From NCBI GenBank assembly GCA_963840935.1, contig CAWJAS010000002.1:71333-135332 (forward strand): DNA of 64,000 nucleotides. Direction: 5' to 3'. This DNA comes from Candidatus Magasanikiibacteriota bacterium. Its GTDB lineage: Bacteria; Patescibacteriota; Patescibacteriia; Magasanikbacterales; GWA2-37-8. Position 1 is the first letter of the stretch. Every line of letters starts with the position of its first letter. The notes under the pieces were generated by a model that saw only the letters and a list, made by a program, of their open reading frames with translations, did not search any database and was not told where the DNA came from. The position numbers and the translations under genes are program-made. Of the stretch, positions 4,774-62,094 are shown in pieces.

Positions 4774-6711
4774 ATGGATTGGAAAAACATCATCAGAAAA
4801 AAAACAAAAAGCGAACCGCGTCCGGTGGTTCGTGATTTTGATTCCAAACTGGTAAAAAAACTGCGTCATAAATTTTTTCCCAACTGGCGCCAATTTTCAT
4901 ATATCGGCAAATTTCTTTCCGGCATTGAAAAAATTATTATTATCACCGCCTCTTTGGTAATTGTGGCATCGTTCGTTGGTTGGGCTATTGTTTCGGTGCC
5001 AAAACATTTTTCCTTCACCCCAAAATCCGGCGGAGAATATACCGAAGCTTTAATCGGCCAACCAAAAATGATAAACCCAATTTTTGACTCGGCCAATGAT
5101 GTTGACGCTGATATCACCCCGTTAATTTACGCCAAATTATTCAGAATCGGCGACAATCAAAAAATGATTCCTGAACTGGCGGTGTCATATTCCGTGAGCG
5201 AAGACAATAAAACATACACAATCAAACTCCGTGAAGATGCCGTTTGGACCGACGGAGAAAAAATCGATGCCGATGATGTGGTGTTTACTTTTGACACAAT
5301 CCAAAATCCGGAAATCAGTAGCCCGCTTTATCCGGCTTTTAACGGAGTAAAAATAGAAAAATTAAGCCAATTTGAGGTCAGCTTTATTCTCAAAGAATCA
5401 TATGCGCCTTTTGTGTCGAGTCTTGCTGTTGGCATTATTCCCGAACATGTTTTTGGGTTGATCGCGCCAACCAATTTGCGCATTGCCAAAGAAAACCTGC
5501 AACCAAAAGTTGTTTCCGGTGCCTTTAAATTTTCCAAGATGACCAAAAATGAAAGTGGTATTGAAACATACACACTTGAAAGAAACGAAAGATATTTCGG
5601 TTCATTCCCGCACATCAAAAAAATCACTTTCAAATTTTATCAAGATTTTGCACCCGCGGCCGATGCTTTAAAAACTCGCAATTTTATGGGATTGGCTTTT
5701 GTCCCAAGCAATTTAGTCAAATCTTATGGCGGTAAAAATTACTATTCCTACCAATTGAGATTGCCCCAATACTCCGCTTTATTTTTCAATCAAAGTTTTT
5801 CATTATATAAAGATTACGATATCAGAGTGGCTTTGGCCAAAGCGATTGACCGTCCAATTGTGATGCAAACCGCCTTGGGCGAACAAGGTGAAATCATCAA
5901 CGGACCAATTCTTTCGGGATTTATCGGTTATCATTCGGACATTGCAAAGATTGAATACAACGCCGATGAAGCGGCCGAGTTATTGGATAAAACATGGCCG
6001 AGAATTAACCCTGAAGATTATTTTGCCTTGCGCCGAGATGCCATTGTTAAAGAGCGTGAAGAAGAAATAACGAGTTTGCCGGATTATGAAACCAATTCCA
6101 CCACTTTGCGCGAAGAATTAACCGCTTCAGTTGAAGAAACCGTACGCGCCACCATGCGACCGGACCAAACCTATTACCGGAAAAATGAAAAGGGGCAAAT
6201 CTTGACTGTCACCGTCACCACGGCGAACACGCCCGAGTATCAAGCGGCCGTTGAATCAATCGCTTTGATGTGGCGGGCAATCGGTGTGCAAACCAATGTA
6301 AAAATTGTGGACGGAAGACAAATCAGCCGTGAGGTTCTTCGAGGCAGGCAATTTGAAATTTTGCTTTATGGAGAAATTCTTGGCAATGACCCCGACCCAT
6401 ATCCGTTTTGGCATTCTTCGCAAACAGAATCCCCGGGTTTGAATTTGGCGGGATTTACCGACCGCAATGTTGATAAAATTTTGGAAGATGCGAGAACCGC
6501 CACTTCATCGGCAATCCGCGACGAGCTATATAAAAAATTTCAAGATACCATTGTTAAAGATCTGCCGGCGATTTTCTTATACGCGCCGACTTATGAATAT
6601 TTGATAGACAAAGAAGTTAAGGGAGTGGAAATTAACAATATTTATTCCCCCGCGGGGAGGTTCAATAATATCGCTAACTGGTTTATAAAAACCAAATGGA
6701 GCTGGAAATAA
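4774..6711 (+). CDS. ABC transporter substrate-binding protein, family 5 (peptide/nickel type), membrane-anchored
   Basis: 645 aa with an N-terminal TM anchor. Overall OppA/DppA-like architecture with typical family-5 SBP blocks (KLFRIGDNQKMIPELAVSY...KLREDAVWTDGEKIDADDVVFTFD). Confidence 0.65.
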   Translation: MDWKNIIRKKTKSEPRPVVRDFDSKLVKKLRHKFFPNWRQFSYIGKFLSGIEKIIIITASLVIVASFVGWAIVSVPKHFSFTPKSGGEYTEALIGQPKMINPIFDSANDVDADITPLIYAKLFRIGDNQKMIPELAVSYSVSEDNKTYTIKLREDAVWTDGEKIDADDVVFTFDTIQNPEISSPLYPAFNGVKIEKLSQFEVSFILKESYAPFVSSLAVGIIPEHVFGLIAPTNLRIAKENLQPKVVSGAFKFSKMTKNESGIETYTLERNERYFGSFPHIKKITFKFYQDFAPAADALKTRNFMGLAFVPSNLVKSYGGKNYYSYQLRLPQYSALFFNQSFSLYKDYDIRVALAKAIDRPIVMQTALGEQGEIINGPILSGFIGYHSDIAKIEYNADEAAELLDKTWPRINPEDYFALRRDAIVKEREEEITSLPDYETNSTTLREELTASVEETVRATMRPDQTYYRKNEKGQILTVTVTTANTPEYQAAVESIALMWRAIGVQTNVKIVDGRQISREVLRGRQFEILLYGEILGNDPDPYPFWHSSQTESPGLNLAGFTDRNVDKILEDARTATSSAIRDELYKKFQDTIVKDLPAIFLYAPTYEYLIDKEVKGVEINNIYSPAGRFNNIANWFIKTKWSWK

Positions 6712-6896: not shown

Positions 6897-6902
6897 CAAA
6901 TT

Positions 6903-6951
6903 CAATTCCGTAAGCCCCGAGTTCATCTCGGGGCAAGTCGAAGCGGAATTG
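6903..6951. repeat. Nested inverted-repeat hairpin immediately 3' of tRNA-Leu
   Basis: Outer arms caattccg / cggaattg and inner arms gccccgag / ctcggggc. Seen directly. Confidence 0.5.
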
Positions 6952-6997
6952 CTTTCTTCATTTATTATTCATCTAATTAATTACTTTTAACCAACTT

Positions 6998-8788
6998 ATG
7001 ATTTTTAAATCAAATAAGCCATCCGGCCACAACAGTCGTTCCAGACGAACTTACGGAACCCGCCGGACGGAAAAACCCGCGCCCGTTTCAAATGAGCGCC
7101 AATCGTTTTCGCGTTTTCGCGGAACCGAAACCAAACTTCGAGTAGCCGTGCTTGGCGGTCTTGAAGAAGTCGGACGCAATTGCACCATGATTGAATATAA
7201 TGGCGACATTATTTTAATCGACATGGGATTGCAATTCCCCGAAGAAGACATGCCCGGAATTGATTACATTATTCCCAACATGGGCTATCTCAAAGGAAAA
7301 GAAAAAAACATCCGCGGAGTGATTATCACTCACGCCCACTACGACCACATCGGCGGAATCCCCCATTTGATTCCTGATTTGGGCTACCCGCCAATTTATG
7401 GCCTGCCTTTGACCACGGCCATTATCAAAAAAAGACAAGATGATTACAAAAATTTGAAACCTTTAAACATCCACAACGTTAAACTGGATGACAAATTGCG
7501 CCTTGGGTCTTTTGAAGTGGAATTTTTTCATTTGAACCACAACATTCCCGATTCCATGGGTGTGGTCATTCATACTCCGGAAGGAACAATTGTCCATTCG
7601 GGCGACTGGAAATTTGACTACCAACCAGTCGGCGAACCGCCGGCTGACTTACAGCGCATCGCTCAAATCGGCTCTGCCGGTGTTTTGGCTTTGCTTTCCG
7701 ACTCAACCAACGCCTCTCATTTGGGGCATCAAACATCTGAATCAGAAATCAGCACCAACCTTGAAGAAATCGTCACCAAAGCTCCGGGCCGATTAATTAT
7801 TGGCACATTTGCTTCTCTGCTTTCGCGTATTCGCCAAATTATTGAAATCGCGGAAAAGCACGGCAAAGTCGTGGCGCTTGACGGATTCTCTATGAAAAGT
7901 AACATCGCCATCGCCAAGGAACTCGGCTACATGAAATTCAATCCAAAAACTTTGATTGAACTGCACAAAATTCATGATTACCCGGATGATAAAGTAGTGG
8001 TTATGTGCACCGGCGCGCAAGGCGAAAAAAACGCCTCGCTCATGCGCATCGCGAACGGCGAACACCGTATGATTAAATTGGTGCCGGGCGATACTGTTGT
8101 GTTCTCATCTTCGGTAATTCCGGGCAATGAACGAACCGTCCAACGACTCAAAGACACGCTCTTCCGCAAAGGAGCGGAGGTAATCCATTATCAAATGATG
8201 GACGTGCATGCCGGAGGCCACGCCAAAGCCGATGACGTTAAATTGATGGTGCGCCTCATCAATCCAAAATATTTTGTGCCGATTGAAGGCAATCATCATC
8301 TTTTGCACTACAACGCCAAAACTGTGGAATCACTTGGCTTCCCCAAAGAAAATATTTTTATTGCCGATAACGGGCAAGTGATGGAATTTTCGCGCGGAAT
8401 CGGCAAACTGACCAAAGAAAAAGTGCCGGCCGATTATGTGTTCGTTGATGGGCTTGGCGTGTCTGATGAAACCAATGTGGTGCTTCGCGACCGCCAGATG
8501 CTTGCGGAAGACGGAATGATTGTGGTTATCGCCACGGTCAATTCCAAAACCGGACAGTTGATTCAAAACCCGGATATAATTTCGCGTGGATTTGTTTTTC
8601 TCAAAGAAAACAAAGAACTAATTGAAGACCTGCGCCACAGAGTAAAAAAATTGATTCATGATTCCGACCCGCTTTCATGGGCCGATACCAACAACATCAA
8701 AAACAAAATCAGGGATTATGTCGGGCAGTTTTTGTTCTCAAAGACAGAAAAAAGACCGATGGTTCTTCCCGTTGTTATTGAAGTGTAA
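6998..8788 (+). CDS. rnj: Ribonuclease J (metallo-beta-lactamase / beta-CASP RNase)
   Basis: 596 aa. HAHYDHIGG metallo-beta-lactamase motif, an RNase J-like N-terminal block (VLGGLEEVGRNCTMIEY...DMGLQFPEED) and a beta-CASP region. Confidence 0.85.
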   Translation: MIFKSNKPSGHNSRSRRTYGTRRTEKPAPVSNERQSFSRFRGTETKLRVAVLGGLEEVGRNCTMIEYNGDIILIDMGLQFPEEDMPGIDYIIPNMGYLKGKEKNIRGVIITHAHYDHIGGIPHLIPDLGYPPIYGLPLTTAIIKKRQDDYKNLKPLNIHNVKLDDKLRLGSFEVEFFHLNHNIPDSMGVVIHTPEGTIVHSGDWKFDYQPVGEPPADLQRIAQIGSAGVLALLSDSTNASHLGHQTSESEISTNLEEIVTKAPGRLIIGTFASLLSRIRQIIEIAEKHGKVVALDGFSMKSNIAIAKELGYMKFNPKTLIELHKIHDYPDDKVVVMCTGAQGEKNASLMRIANGEHRMIKLVPGDTVVFSSSVIPGNERTVQRLKDTLFRKGAEVIHYQMMDVHAGGHAKADDVKLMVRLINPKYFVPIEGNHHLLHYNAKTVESLGFPKENIFIADNGQVMEFSRGIGKLTKEKVPADYVFVDGLGVSDETNVVLRDRQMLAEDGMIVVIATVNSKTGQLIQNPDIISRGFVFLKENKELIEDLRHRVKKLIHDSDPLSWADTNNIKNKIRDYVGQFLFSKTEKRPMVLPVVIEV

Positions 8789-59999: not shown

Positions 60000-60033
60000 G
60001 CCCCTATAGTTTAATGGATAGAATATCAGGCTT
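60000..60033 (+). repeat. 34-nt copy of the tRNA-Arg(TCG) 5' half (acceptor through anticodon nt 34-35), 90 bp upstream of the intact gene
   Basis: GCCCCTATAGTTTAATGGATAGAATATCAGGCTT is identical to 60124..60157 and diverges in the anticodon loop. It is followed by the hairpins cggttttgt...acaaaaccg and cccgcc-tttat-ggcggg. Confidence 0.7.
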
Positions 60034-60123
60034 TGCCGGTTTTGTCTGTGAACGAAGAGAGCGGATACAAAACCGAGCATCCCGCCTTTATGGCGGGACG
60101 AACCTTTCCAATAATATAATTTA

Positions 60124-60195
60124 GCCCCTATAGTTTAATGGATAGAATATCAGGCTTCGAACCTGAAGATGGGAGTTCGATTCTCTCTGGGGGCA
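60124..60195 (+). tRNA. tRNA-Arg (anticodon TCG)
   Basis: GCCCCTATAGTTTAATGGATAGAATATCAGGCTTCGAACCTGAAGATGGGAGTTCGATTCTCTCTGGGGGCA. Anticodon loop CTTCGAA, T-loop TTCGATT. A terminator aaaaccatattaatggttttt follows. Confidence 0.85.
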
Positions 60196-60227
60196 CAAAA
60201 ACCATATTAATGGTTTTTATGACCACA

Positions 60228-60389
60228 AGCGACTAAACAGTTTTAGTCGCGTGAGAAATCGAACGCCGGAGCGATGTTTGGCGAGCCTGCGGGCGAGACA
60301 AACCGCAATTCGCCAACTGGCGAAGGTGGCTAGACAAAATTTTCGGAAGAAAATTTTAGTCAGAAGCCAATTCTCTCTGGGGGCACAAA
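60228..60389 (+). other. Conserved tRNA-associated element, copy 2. It ends with a 19-nt copy (60371..60389) of the tRNA-Arg(TCG) 3' end
   Basis: The evidence is as for copy 1. The terminal ttctctctgggggcacaaa duplicates 60181..60199. The element abuts the RBS (aaggag) of the gene at 60418. Confidence 0.5.
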
Positions 60390-60417
60390 GAACCGTTCAT
60401 TAAAAAAGGAGAAGAAG

Positions 60418-60993
60418 ATGGAATTCAACAACGCTCTTATCGGCCTAATAGCCGGTTTTGTGTCGCTAATCGGCTTCATACCCTATATTATCTCGATAAT
60501 TCGTGGGAAAACGCGTCCCAACCGGGCGTCTTGGTGGATTTGGTCGTTTATCGGTTTTCTGCTTCTGGCAAGCTATGCCGCGTCAGGGGCGACCGATACA
60601 ATTTGGGTTCCGATAAGCTATGTGATTGGCCCATTTATTACCGCCCTTCTTTCCATCAAATATGGCGAAGGGGGGTGGAATATTTTTGACCGCTCATGCA
60701 TTCTTGTGGCTACTTCAAGCGCGGTCCTCTGGTTCATCTTTGATTCGGCGCTGATCGCTCTTGTCATCAATCTTGCCATAGATACAAGTGGCGCTTTGCC
60801 GACGATAAGAAAGGTTTATCTCGATCCAGACAGCGAAGATAAACTTTCATGGTTTTTATTTTGCACCGGAAGCGGACTCAACTTACTTGCGATAAACGAA
60901 TGGTCGTTTGTTATCGCTTCATACCCTCTTTACTTGTTCATTGGAAGCAGTGTTATTACTTCGCTAATTTTTTTCAAACGGCGTAAAAAATAA
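60418..60993 (+). CDS. Polytopic membrane protein (191 aa), hypothetical. GC content visibly above the local background
   Basis: A strong SD, six hydrophobic segments and a basic C-terminus. Confidence 0.5.
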   Translation: MEFNNALIGLIAGFVSLIGFIPYIISIIRGKTRPNRASWWIWSFIGFLLLASYAASGATDTIWVPISYVIGPFITALLSIKYGEGGWNIFDRSCILVATSSAVLWFIFDSALIALVINLAIDTSGALPTIRKVYLDPDSEDKLSWFLFCTGSGLNLLAINEWSFVIASYPLYLFIGSSVITSLIFFKRRKK

Positions 60994-61045
60994 AAAAGTT
61001 CATCCAACAAAAAAGACCTCCCTTAAAGGAGGTCTTTATCTTTTT

Positions 61046-61873
61046 TTACACAACTGCTCCATCTATTTTTATTTTTCCCATTTTAAAATTTTCATTCTCA
61101 GAAAGCACCGCGCTTACTTCATTTATTATTTTTTCTAAATCTTTTTCATCTTTGGCAAAAATAATTATCACAAAAGGAAAAGCGGAACTGAATAATTCGC
61201 CAAAACCGTGACTACCAAAAGCAATATTAACTGCTATCCGCAATTCTTCGTTCGCATATTCATCAGGCAAATATGCTCGTTCAATCACAAACCCCATTGG
61301 CAATCCAATTTCTACATTCGGATTAAAACCTCCGATTGCATCATAATAGACAACGCGCGCATTATGGAAATCTACCGGCCTCTCCATATCTCCGGCCAAA
61401 ATGTGAGTTCGCTCAGCCGGGTGACCCATTTCTTTAATTTTATCCGCCAATTTATCAGACCACATTTTGGCATACTCCTCAATTTTAAAAGCCAAATTTT
61501 CATGAGTATTCGCATCAGGAAAATCCCGTTTATAAGCGATGCCCGCTGCCCCACACCCGCCGTGGCTGGTTATATTTGTAACACCTTGCTCGATCATCAA
61601 TTTAGCAACTTTTTCCAATCTATCTGCTTCATTATCGGCCGTAAATAATATTCCGCTTCCGCCAATGCAAAATTTTGCTTCTCCGTTAATGTCTTTGTGC
61701 GCCGTGCCTTCATCCATGCAAACAACACATTTCTGCGGGCTCCTAAAAGCGCGTTTAATATCCGGAAATTCTCTTTCAAAAAAAGATGATGCTCCCAATT
61801 CATATAATTTTTCTAAATCAGAATTTTCCAATTCAAAGGTAAGCCCTTTTTCTTTGATAATTTCATTATCCAT
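61046..61873 (-). CDS. Hypothetical protein (275 aa), Cys/Gly-containing, no family recognised
   Basis: A long ORF with consistent codon usage, including CVVCMDEG...GGSGIL...SHGGCGAAG. Confidence 0.45.
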   Translation of the reverse strand: MDNEIIKEKGLTFELENSDLEKLYELGASSFFEREFPDIKRAFRSPQKCVVCMDEGTAHKDINGEAKFCIGGSGILFTADNEADRLEKVAKLMIEQGVTNITSHGGCGAAGIAYKRDFPDANTHENLAFKIEEYAKMWSDKLADKIKEMGHPAERTHILAGDMERPVDFHNARVVYYDAIGGFNPNVEIGLPMGFVIERAYLPDEYANEELRIAVNIAFGSHGFGELFSSAFPFVIIIFAKDEKDLEKIINEVSAVLSENENFKMGKIKIDGAVV

Positions 61874-62094
61874 AACTAAAATAATATATAATTAATGATA
61901 ATAGTTTACCTAAAATATCGCTTTCAAGTCAAGTAAAAAAAATTTTCACATCTAACACGCTAACCTGTGCATAACTTTGCTTGACGCTATTCACATTTTT
62001 ATAATAGCACTATATAATATAAGTAGGTCGATTGAGGTTTGTGCCGAATGCTTGTTGGCAAAAACTTCAAAAAAAATTTAAAAATAATTTTTTT

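Follow-up and report, generated by a model that had tools for sequence, protein, structure and literature searches.

The window analysed here is a stretch of 64,000 nt from a Candidatus Magasanikiibacteriota bacterium (contig CAWJAS010000002.1, positions 71,333–135,332), in which two tRNA genes are flanked by partial copies of themselves. ARAGORN and Rfam call four tRNA genes in this 64-kb window, and a covariance model places a structured element behind two of the four, tRNA-Lys(CTT) and tRNA-Arg(TCG). At both loci an intact tRNA is preceded by a copy of its own 5' part and followed, at the far end of the element, by a copy of its own 3' end. The downstream element is a member of an apparently undescribed family of structured RNAs of ~150–160 nt from Patescibacteria, bacteria of the candidate phyla radiation. 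On balance, we think it probable that these are a new family of selfish, tRNA-linked RNA elements and not the scar of an integrase. The Arg locus is laid out as follows.

59949–59977 (+), promoter-like site TTGACA-17-TACATT before the Arg 5' copy; 10 of 12 matches; the same site precedes the intact tRNA-Arg in the relatives L048 and L045
59997–60033 (+), Arg 5' copy from the repeat search: three leader nucleotides and tRNA-Arg nucleotides 1–34, at the tRNA position of the empty alleles L048 and L045
60034–60123 (+), spacer of the leader unit, homologous to three tandem units in L043; fold z-score −3.3
60037–60075 (+), hairpin 1 of the leader unit
60080–60098 (+), hairpin 2 of the leader unit, TCCCGCC/GGCGGGA
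60124–60196 (+), intact tRNA-Arg(TCG), called by ARAGORN and by Rfam (tRNA, 69.4 bits)
60198–60217 (+), AU-rich hairpin AAAACCAT/ATGGTTTT between tRNA-Arg and the element, the counterpart of the terminator-like hairpin T1 in other copies
60214–60369 (+), body of the Arg element (whole element 60214–60389); covariance model 132 bits, E = 4e-30, with covariation and a fold z-score of −5.3
60229–60250 (+), P1 of the Arg element
60251–60265 (+), antisense arm of the Arg element, against T-loop and T-stem
from 60266 (+), invariant junction CCGGAGCGAU of the Arg element
60276–60303 (+), P3 of the Arg element
60303–60329 (+), extended P4 hairpin of the Arg element
60328–60368 (+), P5/P6 of the Arg element, with a GGAA loop
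60370–60389 (+), Arg 3' copy, from T-loop A58 to the discriminator plus four trailer nucleotides; 20 of 20 identical
60406–60411 (+), ribosome-binding site (RBS)
60418–60993 (+), membrane-protein gene of 191 aa, resident and syntenic, 98.6% identical to L048

The repeat search fixes the limits of both copies. Positions 59997–60033 repeat 60121–60157 over 37 nt with one mismatch; tRNA nucleotides 1–34 are copied exactly, and identity drops from 100% to nothing straight after U34. At the other end, 60370–60389 and 60180–60199 agree at all 20 positions. The initial annotation, which was made from the letters of the window, had placed these duplicates at 60000–60033 and 60371–60389, correct to within 1–3 nt. 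Local alignment of each tRNA with its upstream 450 nt scores 68 for Arg and 26 for Lys, where the null reaches at most 22. The Arg 5' copy is not called as a tRNA by either ARAGORN or Rfam, and it shows no residual cloverleaf and no graded similarity past the copied segment. The leader unit between this copy and the tRNA ends in an AT-rich tail that contains TATAAT.

The Lys locus had been described as having the same layout, and this holds: a 14-nt 5' copy (58807–58820) lies 127 nt upstream of the tRNA, and a 56-nt 3' copy (59182–59237, one mismatch) includes the terminator. Its features are these.

58807–58933 (+), Lys 5' copy (58807–58820) and a 113-nt leader-unit spacer with a UUCG-loop hairpin; present in L045 and L048, absent from L043 and L046
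58935–59008 (+), tRNA-Lys(CTT), called by ARAGORN and Rfam
59042–59237 (+), whole Lys element (copy 1); covariance model 157.6 bits
59045–59054 (+), arm antisense to the acceptor
59057–59078 (+), P1
59079–59093 (+), arm antisense to the T-loop and T-stem
59104–59131 (+), P3
59131–59141 (+), P4
59143–59182 (+), P5/P6
59182–59201 (+), Lys 3' copy, followed by the duplicated terminator to 59237

Between tRNA and 3' copy, the Arg and Lys downstream elements share an 80-nt core with 89% identity, and a 27-mer from this core occurs twice in the window where 100 shuffles give an expectation of 0. We saw no similarity between the two upstream spacers.

Syntenic loci in relatives were reached through homologues of the AlkD gene, which lies between tRNA-Lys and tRNA-Arg in the order L32, nusB, rnc, tRNA-Lys, alkD, tRNA-Arg, membrane gene. 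The closest comparison is L048, a relative of the same species with flanks 98.0–98.6% identical and a tRNA-Arg 100% identical to that of the window. Its Arg locus lacks both insertions. The intact tRNA-Arg begins where the 5' copy of the window begins, behind the same TTGACA-17-TACATT, and is followed by one small hairpin repeat and then by the same RBS and membrane gene. The sequence 3' of the Arg 3' copy in the window is the sequence found 3' of the tRNA in this empty allele, down to the RBS and start codon. The Arg locus of L045 (AlkD 78% identity) is empty as well, and that of L043 (AlkD 75%) has no downstream element and carries three tandem upstream units. These comparisons show that the two units, upstream and downstream, are distinct elements, that what looks like a 5' copy is in fact the original 5' half of the resident tRNA, and that the 3' copy with what follows it is the resident 3' end and downstream DNA. 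The comparison upholds the proposals that the element was inserted between tRNA and membrane gene and that the ancestral order was the tRNA followed by that gene, here with the small hairpin repeat between them. It also answers the possibility that the 5' copy might be part of a divergent pseudogene, since this copy stands behind the resident promoter as the resident 5' half.

The gene downstream of the Arg element had been read as a single unit, 60418–61873, and as possible island cargo. It is in fact two convergent open reading frames (ORFs), 60418–60993 (+) and 61046–61873 (−). The first, the membrane-protein gene, has a GC content of 0.448 (z = +0.63) and a GC content at third codon positions (GC3) of 0.479 (z = +0.70), within 0.7 standard deviations of the window genes, and is syntenic in relatives without the element. 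We rejected it as island cargo on these two grounds. It has no Pfam match.

To place the downstream element, one exact 20-mer from its core was searched against one genome per prokaryotic species and against the JGI metagenomes. The species-representative genomes gave 19 matches, 15 of them real and all on contigs of Patescibacteria type; two of these 15 (L009 and L014) sit in bins labelled Gammaproteobacteria although their contigs are of Patescibacteria type, and the other four matches are chance occurrences in unrelated phyla. Among the metagenomes 22 of 23 matches are real. A covariance model built from 14 copies scores full-length copies at 63–165 bits and copies cut by contig ends at 37–88 bits, and in the window it finds just the Arg and Lys copies. 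We list 33 copies including those of relatives, with five cases of the same locus recovered from both collections.

These copies are tied to tRNA genes. A tRNA or transfer-messenger RNA (tmRNA) gene lies upstream on the same strand in 29 of the 33 copies, no more than 106 nt away in 26 of those. The tRNAs served are Lys (two isoacceptors), Arg (three), Ser (two), Leu (two), Asn, Asp, Gly, Glu, Val, Pro, Cys, Ile and Gln, and there is one tmRNA. The suggestion that the architecture recurs is therefore confirmed on a far wider scale, over at least 15 kinds of tRNA and the tmRNA, with most complete copies ending in a tRNA 3'-end copy. The longest exact repeat between tRNA 3' end and element end is 11–61 nt in 19 of the 29 tRNA-linked copies; it is shorter or absent in degenerate, contig-end-cut and exchanged copies. 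Both window elements follow a full tRNA, as do nearly all other copies for which a tRNA was called. An exception is L026, where the matched upstream tRNA is a 5'-truncated fragment; this tRNA-Ser fragment starts in the anticodon loop and lies just downstream of the full gene. Core similarity clusters neither by tRNA nor by genome: Lys, Arg and Pro tRNAs carry cores with 91–93% identity, and neither window copy has the other as its closest relative. Some copies are solitary (L027, L028), and in L039 and L021 units of 3' end, trailer and element are repeated in tandem.

The anatomy of the element is constant. Read 5' to 3' on the tRNA strand it consists of, often, T1, then an acceptor-antisense segment, P1, a T-antisense segment, the junction, P3, P4, P5/P6, a 'GA' and the 3' copy. 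The acceptor-antisense segment is the complement of the acceptor 3' strand with a few nucleotides of the trailer. P1 has 9 bp and is preceded by AGC and followed by GCG; the junction, GAA-N-G CCGGAGCGAU, is invariant across copies; P3 is GUUUGG...CCAAAC; P4 is a small hairpin, often extended; and P5 encloses P6, closed by a GGAA loop and often with tandem G-A pairs. After the 'GA' comes a sense copy of tRNA nucleotides 56/57–76. T1 is present in 15 of 27 copies, and about half of the copies have a hairpin resembling an intrinsic terminator within ~35 nt 3' of the element.

Compensatory changes support this structure. The hairpins of the two window copies differ by such changes, with fold z-scores of −4.6 and −5.3 against shuffled sequence. 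RNAalifold finds them in 20 of its 34 predicted pairs. With a hand-built structure and an alignment of 27 copies, 78.3% of cells can pair compared with 66.5% after shuffling, a level that 0 of 500 shuffles reach; slid controls yield 35–44%. Double changes are seen in 38 of 52 pairs. In L045 and L048, GUUUGG/CCAAAC of P3 is replaced as a whole by GUCGCG/CGCGAC. Core helices hold 39 G-U against 12 A-C combinations, and this excess places the structure on the tRNA-sense strand. Taken with the GNRA loop, the structural evidence favours an RNA over a DNA site bound by protein. Three other readings of the same sequence were discarded. A hairpin GCCGGA/UUUGGC proposed by RNAalifold was dropped in favour of P3 on the basis of the L045/L048 swap and of U-A to U-G changes, and a pseudoknot between the P1 loop and the core proved inconsistent between copies on inspection. 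The ORFs of 50–52 aa that run across the inserts (59046–59204 and 60251–60403) were ruled out as genes by single-nucleotide indels, large hairpin insertions and stem compensation that keep the structure and not the frame.

The feature that ties each element to its gene is an antisense arm. We set tRNA nucleotides 54–73 beside the arm at 23 loci. The arm is complementary to nucleotides 54–75 of its own tRNA and is split by P1 exactly at the boundary of T-stem and acceptor. Its T-side part is the reverse complement of the T-loop and T-stem 3' strand (nucleotides 54–65) and covaries with them, as in the pairs TTCGACTCCC with GGGAGTCGAA, TTCAAGTCCTC with AGGACTTGAA and TTCAAATCCCGG with CGGGATTTGAA. 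Where the tRNA departs from the usual T-loop the arm follows: C55 is met by GGA (tRNA-Lys of L045 and L048), G55 by GUA (L013) and A57 by U (L008, L012, L031). Nucleotides 54–55 are absent from the 3' copy, so that the partner or template there must be the real tRNA. One subgroup has GAG opposite C56-R57-A58, which could form a G-C pair and two sheared G-A pairs. We also tried the arm as a sense copy of the T-stem 5' strand, and rejected this on the asymmetric T-loops of L007, L012 and L014, which show it to be antisense.

Complementarity on the acceptor side is found in most copies. It is of Watson-Crick type and turns G-U pairs of the tRNA or tmRNA stem into A-U or C-G; in L007, G3-U70 of the tmRNA is replaced by A-U in the arm. 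This replacement, with pairing that runs beyond the discriminator, indicates that the element is not an aminoacylatable or CCA-type mimic, and a free NCCA end and acceptor identity pairs, as in a tmRNA-like or viral tRNA-like mimic, are not found. P1 sits where the body of the tRNA leaves the acceptor/T-stem stack. The series antisense arm, P1, antisense arm mirrors the order acceptor 5' strand, body, T-stem 5' strand of the tRNA. Beside these comparisons, we observed that tRNA-Lys(CTT) in L043, L045 and L048 has the T-loop UCCGAAU, with C at position 55, while the window allele has the standard UUCGAAU; position 55 is normally an invariant U, present as pseudouridine.

Gain and loss are also seen at the Lys locus, where the window, L045 and L048 carry both units and L043, L044 and L046 carry neither; the Lys 5' copy lies where the tRNA begins in the empty alleles. 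L048 further documents an exchange. Its Lys remnants are of the window allele (5' copy GGGTTGC..., 3' copy ...CCCAGGCGACCCA), whereas its central tRNA-Lys is the allele of L045 and L043 (GGGTCGC, T-loop TCCGAAT, CCCTG), which its arm matches perfectly. The central tRNA-Lys is 94.6% and the element 83% identical to the window, compared with 98% for the flanks. Upstream region, tRNA, T1 and element were thus exchanged together as one cassette, and the arm was inherited with the tRNA and not with the 3' copy. In L042 a toxin-like cassette of 1.3 kb lies between tRNA-Asp and its element. It encodes at 644–1553 (−) a P-loop protein of 235 aa, similar to zeta toxins or kinases, and a 76-aa partner, between 45-nt direct repeats of the terminator region of tRNA-Asp.

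We propose the following course of events, in which an intact tRNA-Arg would have received two independent small non-coding insertions, each supplying a replacement for the tRNA part that it displaced. The upstream insertion would be a leader unit of 124 bp (two hairpins, an AT-rich tail and a fresh copy of nucleotides 1–34) entering at nucleotides 34/35 and stranding the resident promoter and resident nucleotides 1–34 as the 5' half-copy. The downstream insertion would be ~190 bp at nucleotides 56/57 of the T-loop, made up of fresh nucleotides 57–76, a short hairpin and the structured RNA of ~150 nt, and would leave the resident nucleotides 57/58–76 as the 3' copy. We infer that the element is transcribed, by read-through from the tRNA, and takes up two folds: in one its arm would pair with the 3' third of the tRNA itself, in the other with the distal copy, and the copy left unpaired would complete the tRNA. 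Pairing with the proximal copy is predicted to be longer, adding nucleotides 54–56 and the trailer and extending the T1 hairpin. In such a fold the element would be, in its topology, a dispensable intron or insertion in the T-loop between nucleotides 56 and 57, with the invariant junction lying beside both joints in the model. Since either free copy would complete the tRNA and keep it functional, the insertion would be tolerated by the host. We read the family as presumably selfish RNAs of tRNA genes that would spread horizontally. The direct repeats would in turn allow precise loss, tandem amplification and exchange of cassettes between strains by homologous recombination.

The first entry could have taken several routes: an RNA-guided, intron-like event at the T-loop; a recombinase acting in trans; or repair templated by a transcript or DNA, with template-switch correction of the quasi-palindrome formed by tRNA, T1 and arm. 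We lean, tentatively, towards the RNA-guided event. A stronger version, possible but doubtful, would make these a new class of protein-free, RNA-guided elements that base-pair with the segment from T-loop to 3' end of a tRNA or tmRNA gene or transcript, the junction being a ribozyme or a handle for an enzyme that cuts and rejoins at nucleotides 56/57. The element would then be a miniature T-loop intron with a spare 3' exon, by which it would leave its host tRNA unharmed.

Several points weigh against the reading as a selfish RNA element. Read-through transcripts of 16 loci were folded for minimum energy: in 13 the arm is paired with the proximal tRNA, and in every one of the 16 the distal copy is paired with the acceptor 5' strand. 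Such folds, however, cannot rank near-symmetrical states and ignore tRNA tertiary structure. About half of the copies have a terminator-like hairpin between tRNA and element, which would limit read-through. The long imperfect palindrome of tRNA 3' third, T1 and antisense arm could equally be a feature of the DNA. Because the 3' copy of L048 mismatches its central tRNA, strict exon-type selection does not act on the distal copy, and ancestry from a T-loop intron would predict some copies that truly interrupt a tRNA, without a proximal 3' end; none was found among the copies. The arm may come to match a new tRNA by template-switch correction of the quasi-palindrome, which is a suggestion only. 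The Arg copy is itself a weak member of the family, with 132 bits, no clear acceptor-side segment and a 1-nt flaw in the T-side arm. Finally, the family sample is skewed towards close core variants, since every copy was found through one exact 20-mer.

We searched for known families and for helper proteins. In cmscan of 58000–62000 at E ≤ 10, Rfam gives the two tRNAs and chance matches only, with no match to the group I intron model RF00028; Rfam 15 at gathering thresholds gives only tRNAs over the whole window. The element has no match in IMG/VR by exact-pattern scan, nor among GenBank phages and PLSDB plasmids by blastn. A Pfam scan of the 43 window ORFs shows no integrase, transposase or reverse transcriptase. 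Around ~30 other copies, all-against-all clustering of ORFs yields clusters only from redundant contigs or from ORFs that overlap the element. Exact look-ups of the membrane protein and of AlkD returned no contig. The literature, searched with the core sequence included, holds no description that we found; its coverage was incomplete, and a prior description elsewhere is possible.

The closest rival holds that the elements are miniature, non-autonomous integrative elements, remnants of tyrosine-integrase islands or mobilised by them in trans, whose tRNA pieces are the identity blocks of attL and attR. It is a hallmark of islands borne by integrases that they recombine at the T-loop or anticodon loop of a tRNA or tmRNA gene and restore the displaced part of the tRNA. 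Here too the 3' direct repeats begin in the T-loop (nucleotides 56–58) and reach the tRNA 3' end or beyond, the 5' repeat at Arg ends in the anticodon loop at nucleotide 34, and a tmRNA is among the targets. Integrase-borne islands and prophages likewise vary in presence between strains and accrete in tandem, as the copies here do. The initial annotation had read the anticodon loop as an integrase crossover. Other findings speak against this. No integrase, recombinase or transposase is found in the inserts, among the window ORFs or recurrently near the ~30 other copies, and the inserts measure merely 124 and ~190 bp, without cargo. One core family serves at least 15 kinds of tRNA with different att cores, where an island family has one defined crossover site or one tRNA; it would need many integrases or one that reads the T-loop alone. 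The 5' copies at different loci end at nucleotides 12, 13, 13, 22, 34 and 61, so that the anticodon-loop break at Arg is one of several positions and not a fixed crossover. Nor is the 3' copy a bare att scar, being bound up with a conserved RNA structure through its pairing to the antisense arm. Att sites have no such arm, and the rival gives no role to RNA-type structure (GNRA and UUCG loops, G-U asymmetry, covariation). We regard an integrase origin as unlikely. Of the earlier interpretation, insertion and recurrence stand, the refuting case of a tRNA pseudogene does not apply, and integrase and island cargo are not supported.

Other known systems resemble the element in part. Group I introns occupy anticodon loops of bacterial tRNAs and the T-loop of tmRNA and are common in Patescibacteria (PMC13011429, with the tmRNA-intron paper cited there). 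They share with the element a protein-free structured RNA tied to tRNA and tmRNA loops in Patescibacteria, with variable peripheral hairpins. A guide-like segment that spans the junction may be a further likeness: here GAA would pair with U54-U55-C56 and the rest of the arm with nucleotide 57 onward. This pairing of the arm with nucleotides 54–56 and 57–75 covaries, and a part in splicing is a candidate role. Unlike a group I intron, the element does not interrupt a gene, has a core of only ~100 nt, in which the Rfam model detects no catalytic P3–P9, and does not need splicing. Att sites used as folded single strands, such as the attP hairpin of CTX phage and the attC of integrons, also follow a plan of direct copy, inverted copy, cargo and direct copy, in which a long imperfect hairpin rebuilds the target duplex. 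The window elements are without phage or cassette content, dif or attI, and their RNA-type tetraloops and conserved junction favour RNA over single-stranded DNA. The RNA of long-terminal-repeat (LTR) retroelements (R, U5, primer-binding site, body, R; with self-priming in Tf1) has terminal direct repeats and an internal complement to ~18–20 nt of a tRNA 3' end. The element differs in that no reverse transcriptase is seen and that it complements genomic sequence, with the trailer in and CCA out, into the T-loop. Miniature inverted-repeat transposable elements and integrase-less cis-mobilizable elements (MITEs and CIMEs) are similarly small, non-coding, non-autonomous, multi-copy and flanked by repeats. 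The element, in contrast, has no terminal inverted repeats with a short fixed target duplication, its tRNA repeats vary in length within 20–61 nt, and it is confined to tRNA genes. With no integrase gene, group I core, gene interruption or fixed short target duplication seen, the family falls outside the definition of each of these systems.

A second rival gives the RNA a use to the host. It would be a tRNA-specific RNA acting in cis or trans, whose arm binds the 3' third of its own tRNA or pre-tRNA while the sense copy competes, in 3' processing, folding or quality control; or else a minihelix that recruits RNase P or RNase Z to part tRNA and element. The arm is strictly specific for its own tRNA, T-loop covariation included, the element directly adjoins the tRNA on the same strand, the junction is highly conserved, and the series arm, P1, arm mirrors the strand order of the tRNA, all of which would favour such a function. 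The distribution does not suit it: the element is patchy, absent at the same tRNA in a 98%-identical relative, placed at different tRNAs in different genomes and at only two of the four in the window, and tandem and solitary copies exist. The change of tmRNA G3-U70 to A-U and the pairing past the discriminator do not suit a mimic either. A host-beneficial RNA thus seems improbable to us, to about the same degree as an integrase origin.

Much less probable still is that the loci are decaying tandem duplicates of tRNAs, with junk and small palindromic insertions between them. Longer pseudo-copies do occur in L024, L006, L002 and L026, and GC-rich palindromic mini-insertions are common. In the window, however, the match breaks off abruptly, from 100% identity to none at a single position; what lies between the copies belongs to conserved families that show compensatory changes in distant genomes; and the arm complements the tRNA 3' strand and copies no 5' strand, as the asymmetric T-loops of L007, L012 and L014 make plain. 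With a pristine empty allele in a 98%-identical relative, this explanation is close to refuted for the window. That the element is a 5'-untranslated-region regulator or riboswitch-like leader of the membrane-protein gene, as a 3' copy ending 16 nt before the RBS with no terminator between might suggest, is the least credible explanation, because other copies precede terminators or unrelated or opposite-strand genes, with no recurring downstream gene family, and the same RBS context exists without the element in L048.

If the selfish RNA element is real, Patescibacteria would carry an unrecognised genetic element, a small structured RNA confined to tRNA and tmRNA genes that comes and goes within a species without any protein of its own and is matched individually to its tRNA through an antisense arm and a sense copy. 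It would add to the known RNA families, and might bring to light a ribozyme or guide-RNA principle not seen before. It would account for partial tRNA copies and mosaic tRNA genes in Patescibacteria genomes, with tRNA alleles themselves swapped inside the cassettes, and would offer a testable system for the harmless colonisation of essential genes by selfish RNAs. On the practical side, the units break assemblies and can mislead the annotation of tRNAs and genomic islands in metagenome-assembled genomes of the candidate phyla radiation.

A second family of elements follows the same plan with a different core, at L006 ~1882–2014, L042 ~424–582 and L014 ~5056–5155. Its members start with an antisense T-loop/T-stem arm (GGGAUUCGAA-like), have a hairpin loop of AACUGCUU type in two of three copies, and end in CGA..GAGUGAG(R)NG, after which the 3' end of the upstream tRNA (Gln, Asp and Gly) is repeated. 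This suggests that the design is general.

In three of the 5' copies the tRNA sequence is taken up again beyond a GC-rich hairpin insertion; the Lys unit has its break at nucleotides 13/14. Each of the three tandem units of L043 has a 37-nt GC-rich hairpin in the D-loop of its half-tRNA, and hairpin 2 of the spacer reads TCCCGAG/CTCGGGA in each, compensatory to TCCCGCC/GGCGGGA in the window. We considered the 5' spacer as a remnant of a group I intron or as a tRNA pseudogene, and discarded both for want of a model match and a cloverleaf and in view of the Lys break at 13/14. Longer partial copies were observed elsewhere: an upstream pseudo-copy of nucleotides 1–61 in L024, a 5' pseudo-copy to about nucleotide 48 with two hairpin insertions in L006, and in L002 (oriented 7657–7780) a 5'-truncated copy of tRNA-Gly(GCC) downstream of the full gene, running from about nucleotide 24 and with a hairpin in the variable region.

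In several unrelated genomes, short GC-rich palindromes, for example CCTGCCTGCCGGCAGGCAGG and CCCGCCCG...CGGGCGGG, are inserted into loops, both of the elements and of partial tRNA copies. They occur in the P5 region of L026, at L006 ~1470–1490, at L042 ~1710–1760 and ~490–510, in P1 of L012, at L043 3900–3940 and in the upstream pseudo-tRNA of L024, and look like a family of miniature palindromic insertions. Pairs of hairpins resembling repetitive extragenic palindromes, AACGCAAAGCGTT and GGGACGCTGAGCGTCCC, stand in tandem directly 3' of tRNA-Arg and tRNA-Lys in L043 (3290–3386 and 4720–4785) and L048 (~220–275 and ~1120–1175) and are absent from the window. These units open with CACAA, a repeat of the last tRNA nucleotide and the trailer. 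At a third tRNA of the window, tRNA-Leu(CAG), a nested hairpin CAATTCCG...GCCCCGAG TTCA TCTCGGGGC...CGGAATTG lies directly 3' of the gene at 6898–6960 (+). It contains GTCGAAGC, a motif found twice in the Lys element, and has no 3' copy and no covariance-model match.

Six independent assemblies of close relatives (L047 and L049–L053) end 34 nt upstream of the alkD start, inside the 5' half of tRNA-Arg (window ~60030), which fits a repeat or an allele branch that breaks assemblies. Next to the Lys locus, RNase III (58020–58785, +) is divided into two overlapping ORFs with a frameshift near 58560–58575, whereas relatives including L048 have one intact gene of 254 aa; the split gene is either a pseudogene or an assembly error. 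GyrA (51533–53820, +) also appears as two ORFs, an N-terminal part of 449 aa and a C-terminal beta-propeller of 245 aa, ~200 nt apart, which could reflect a frameshift, an insertion or an intervening sequence. Finally, the ORF at 56499–56990 (−), of 163 aa, has a GC content of 0.675 and a GC3 of 0.93 (z ~5), against 41% GC for the genome. The protein carries a CxxC...CPxH motif; a search of 5.8 billion proteins gave just four homologues, all of them lacking a Pfam match. GC-rich ORFs occupy its syntenic position in L046 (one of the four homologues), L043 (which aligns) and L045, with differences that peak at third codon positions.

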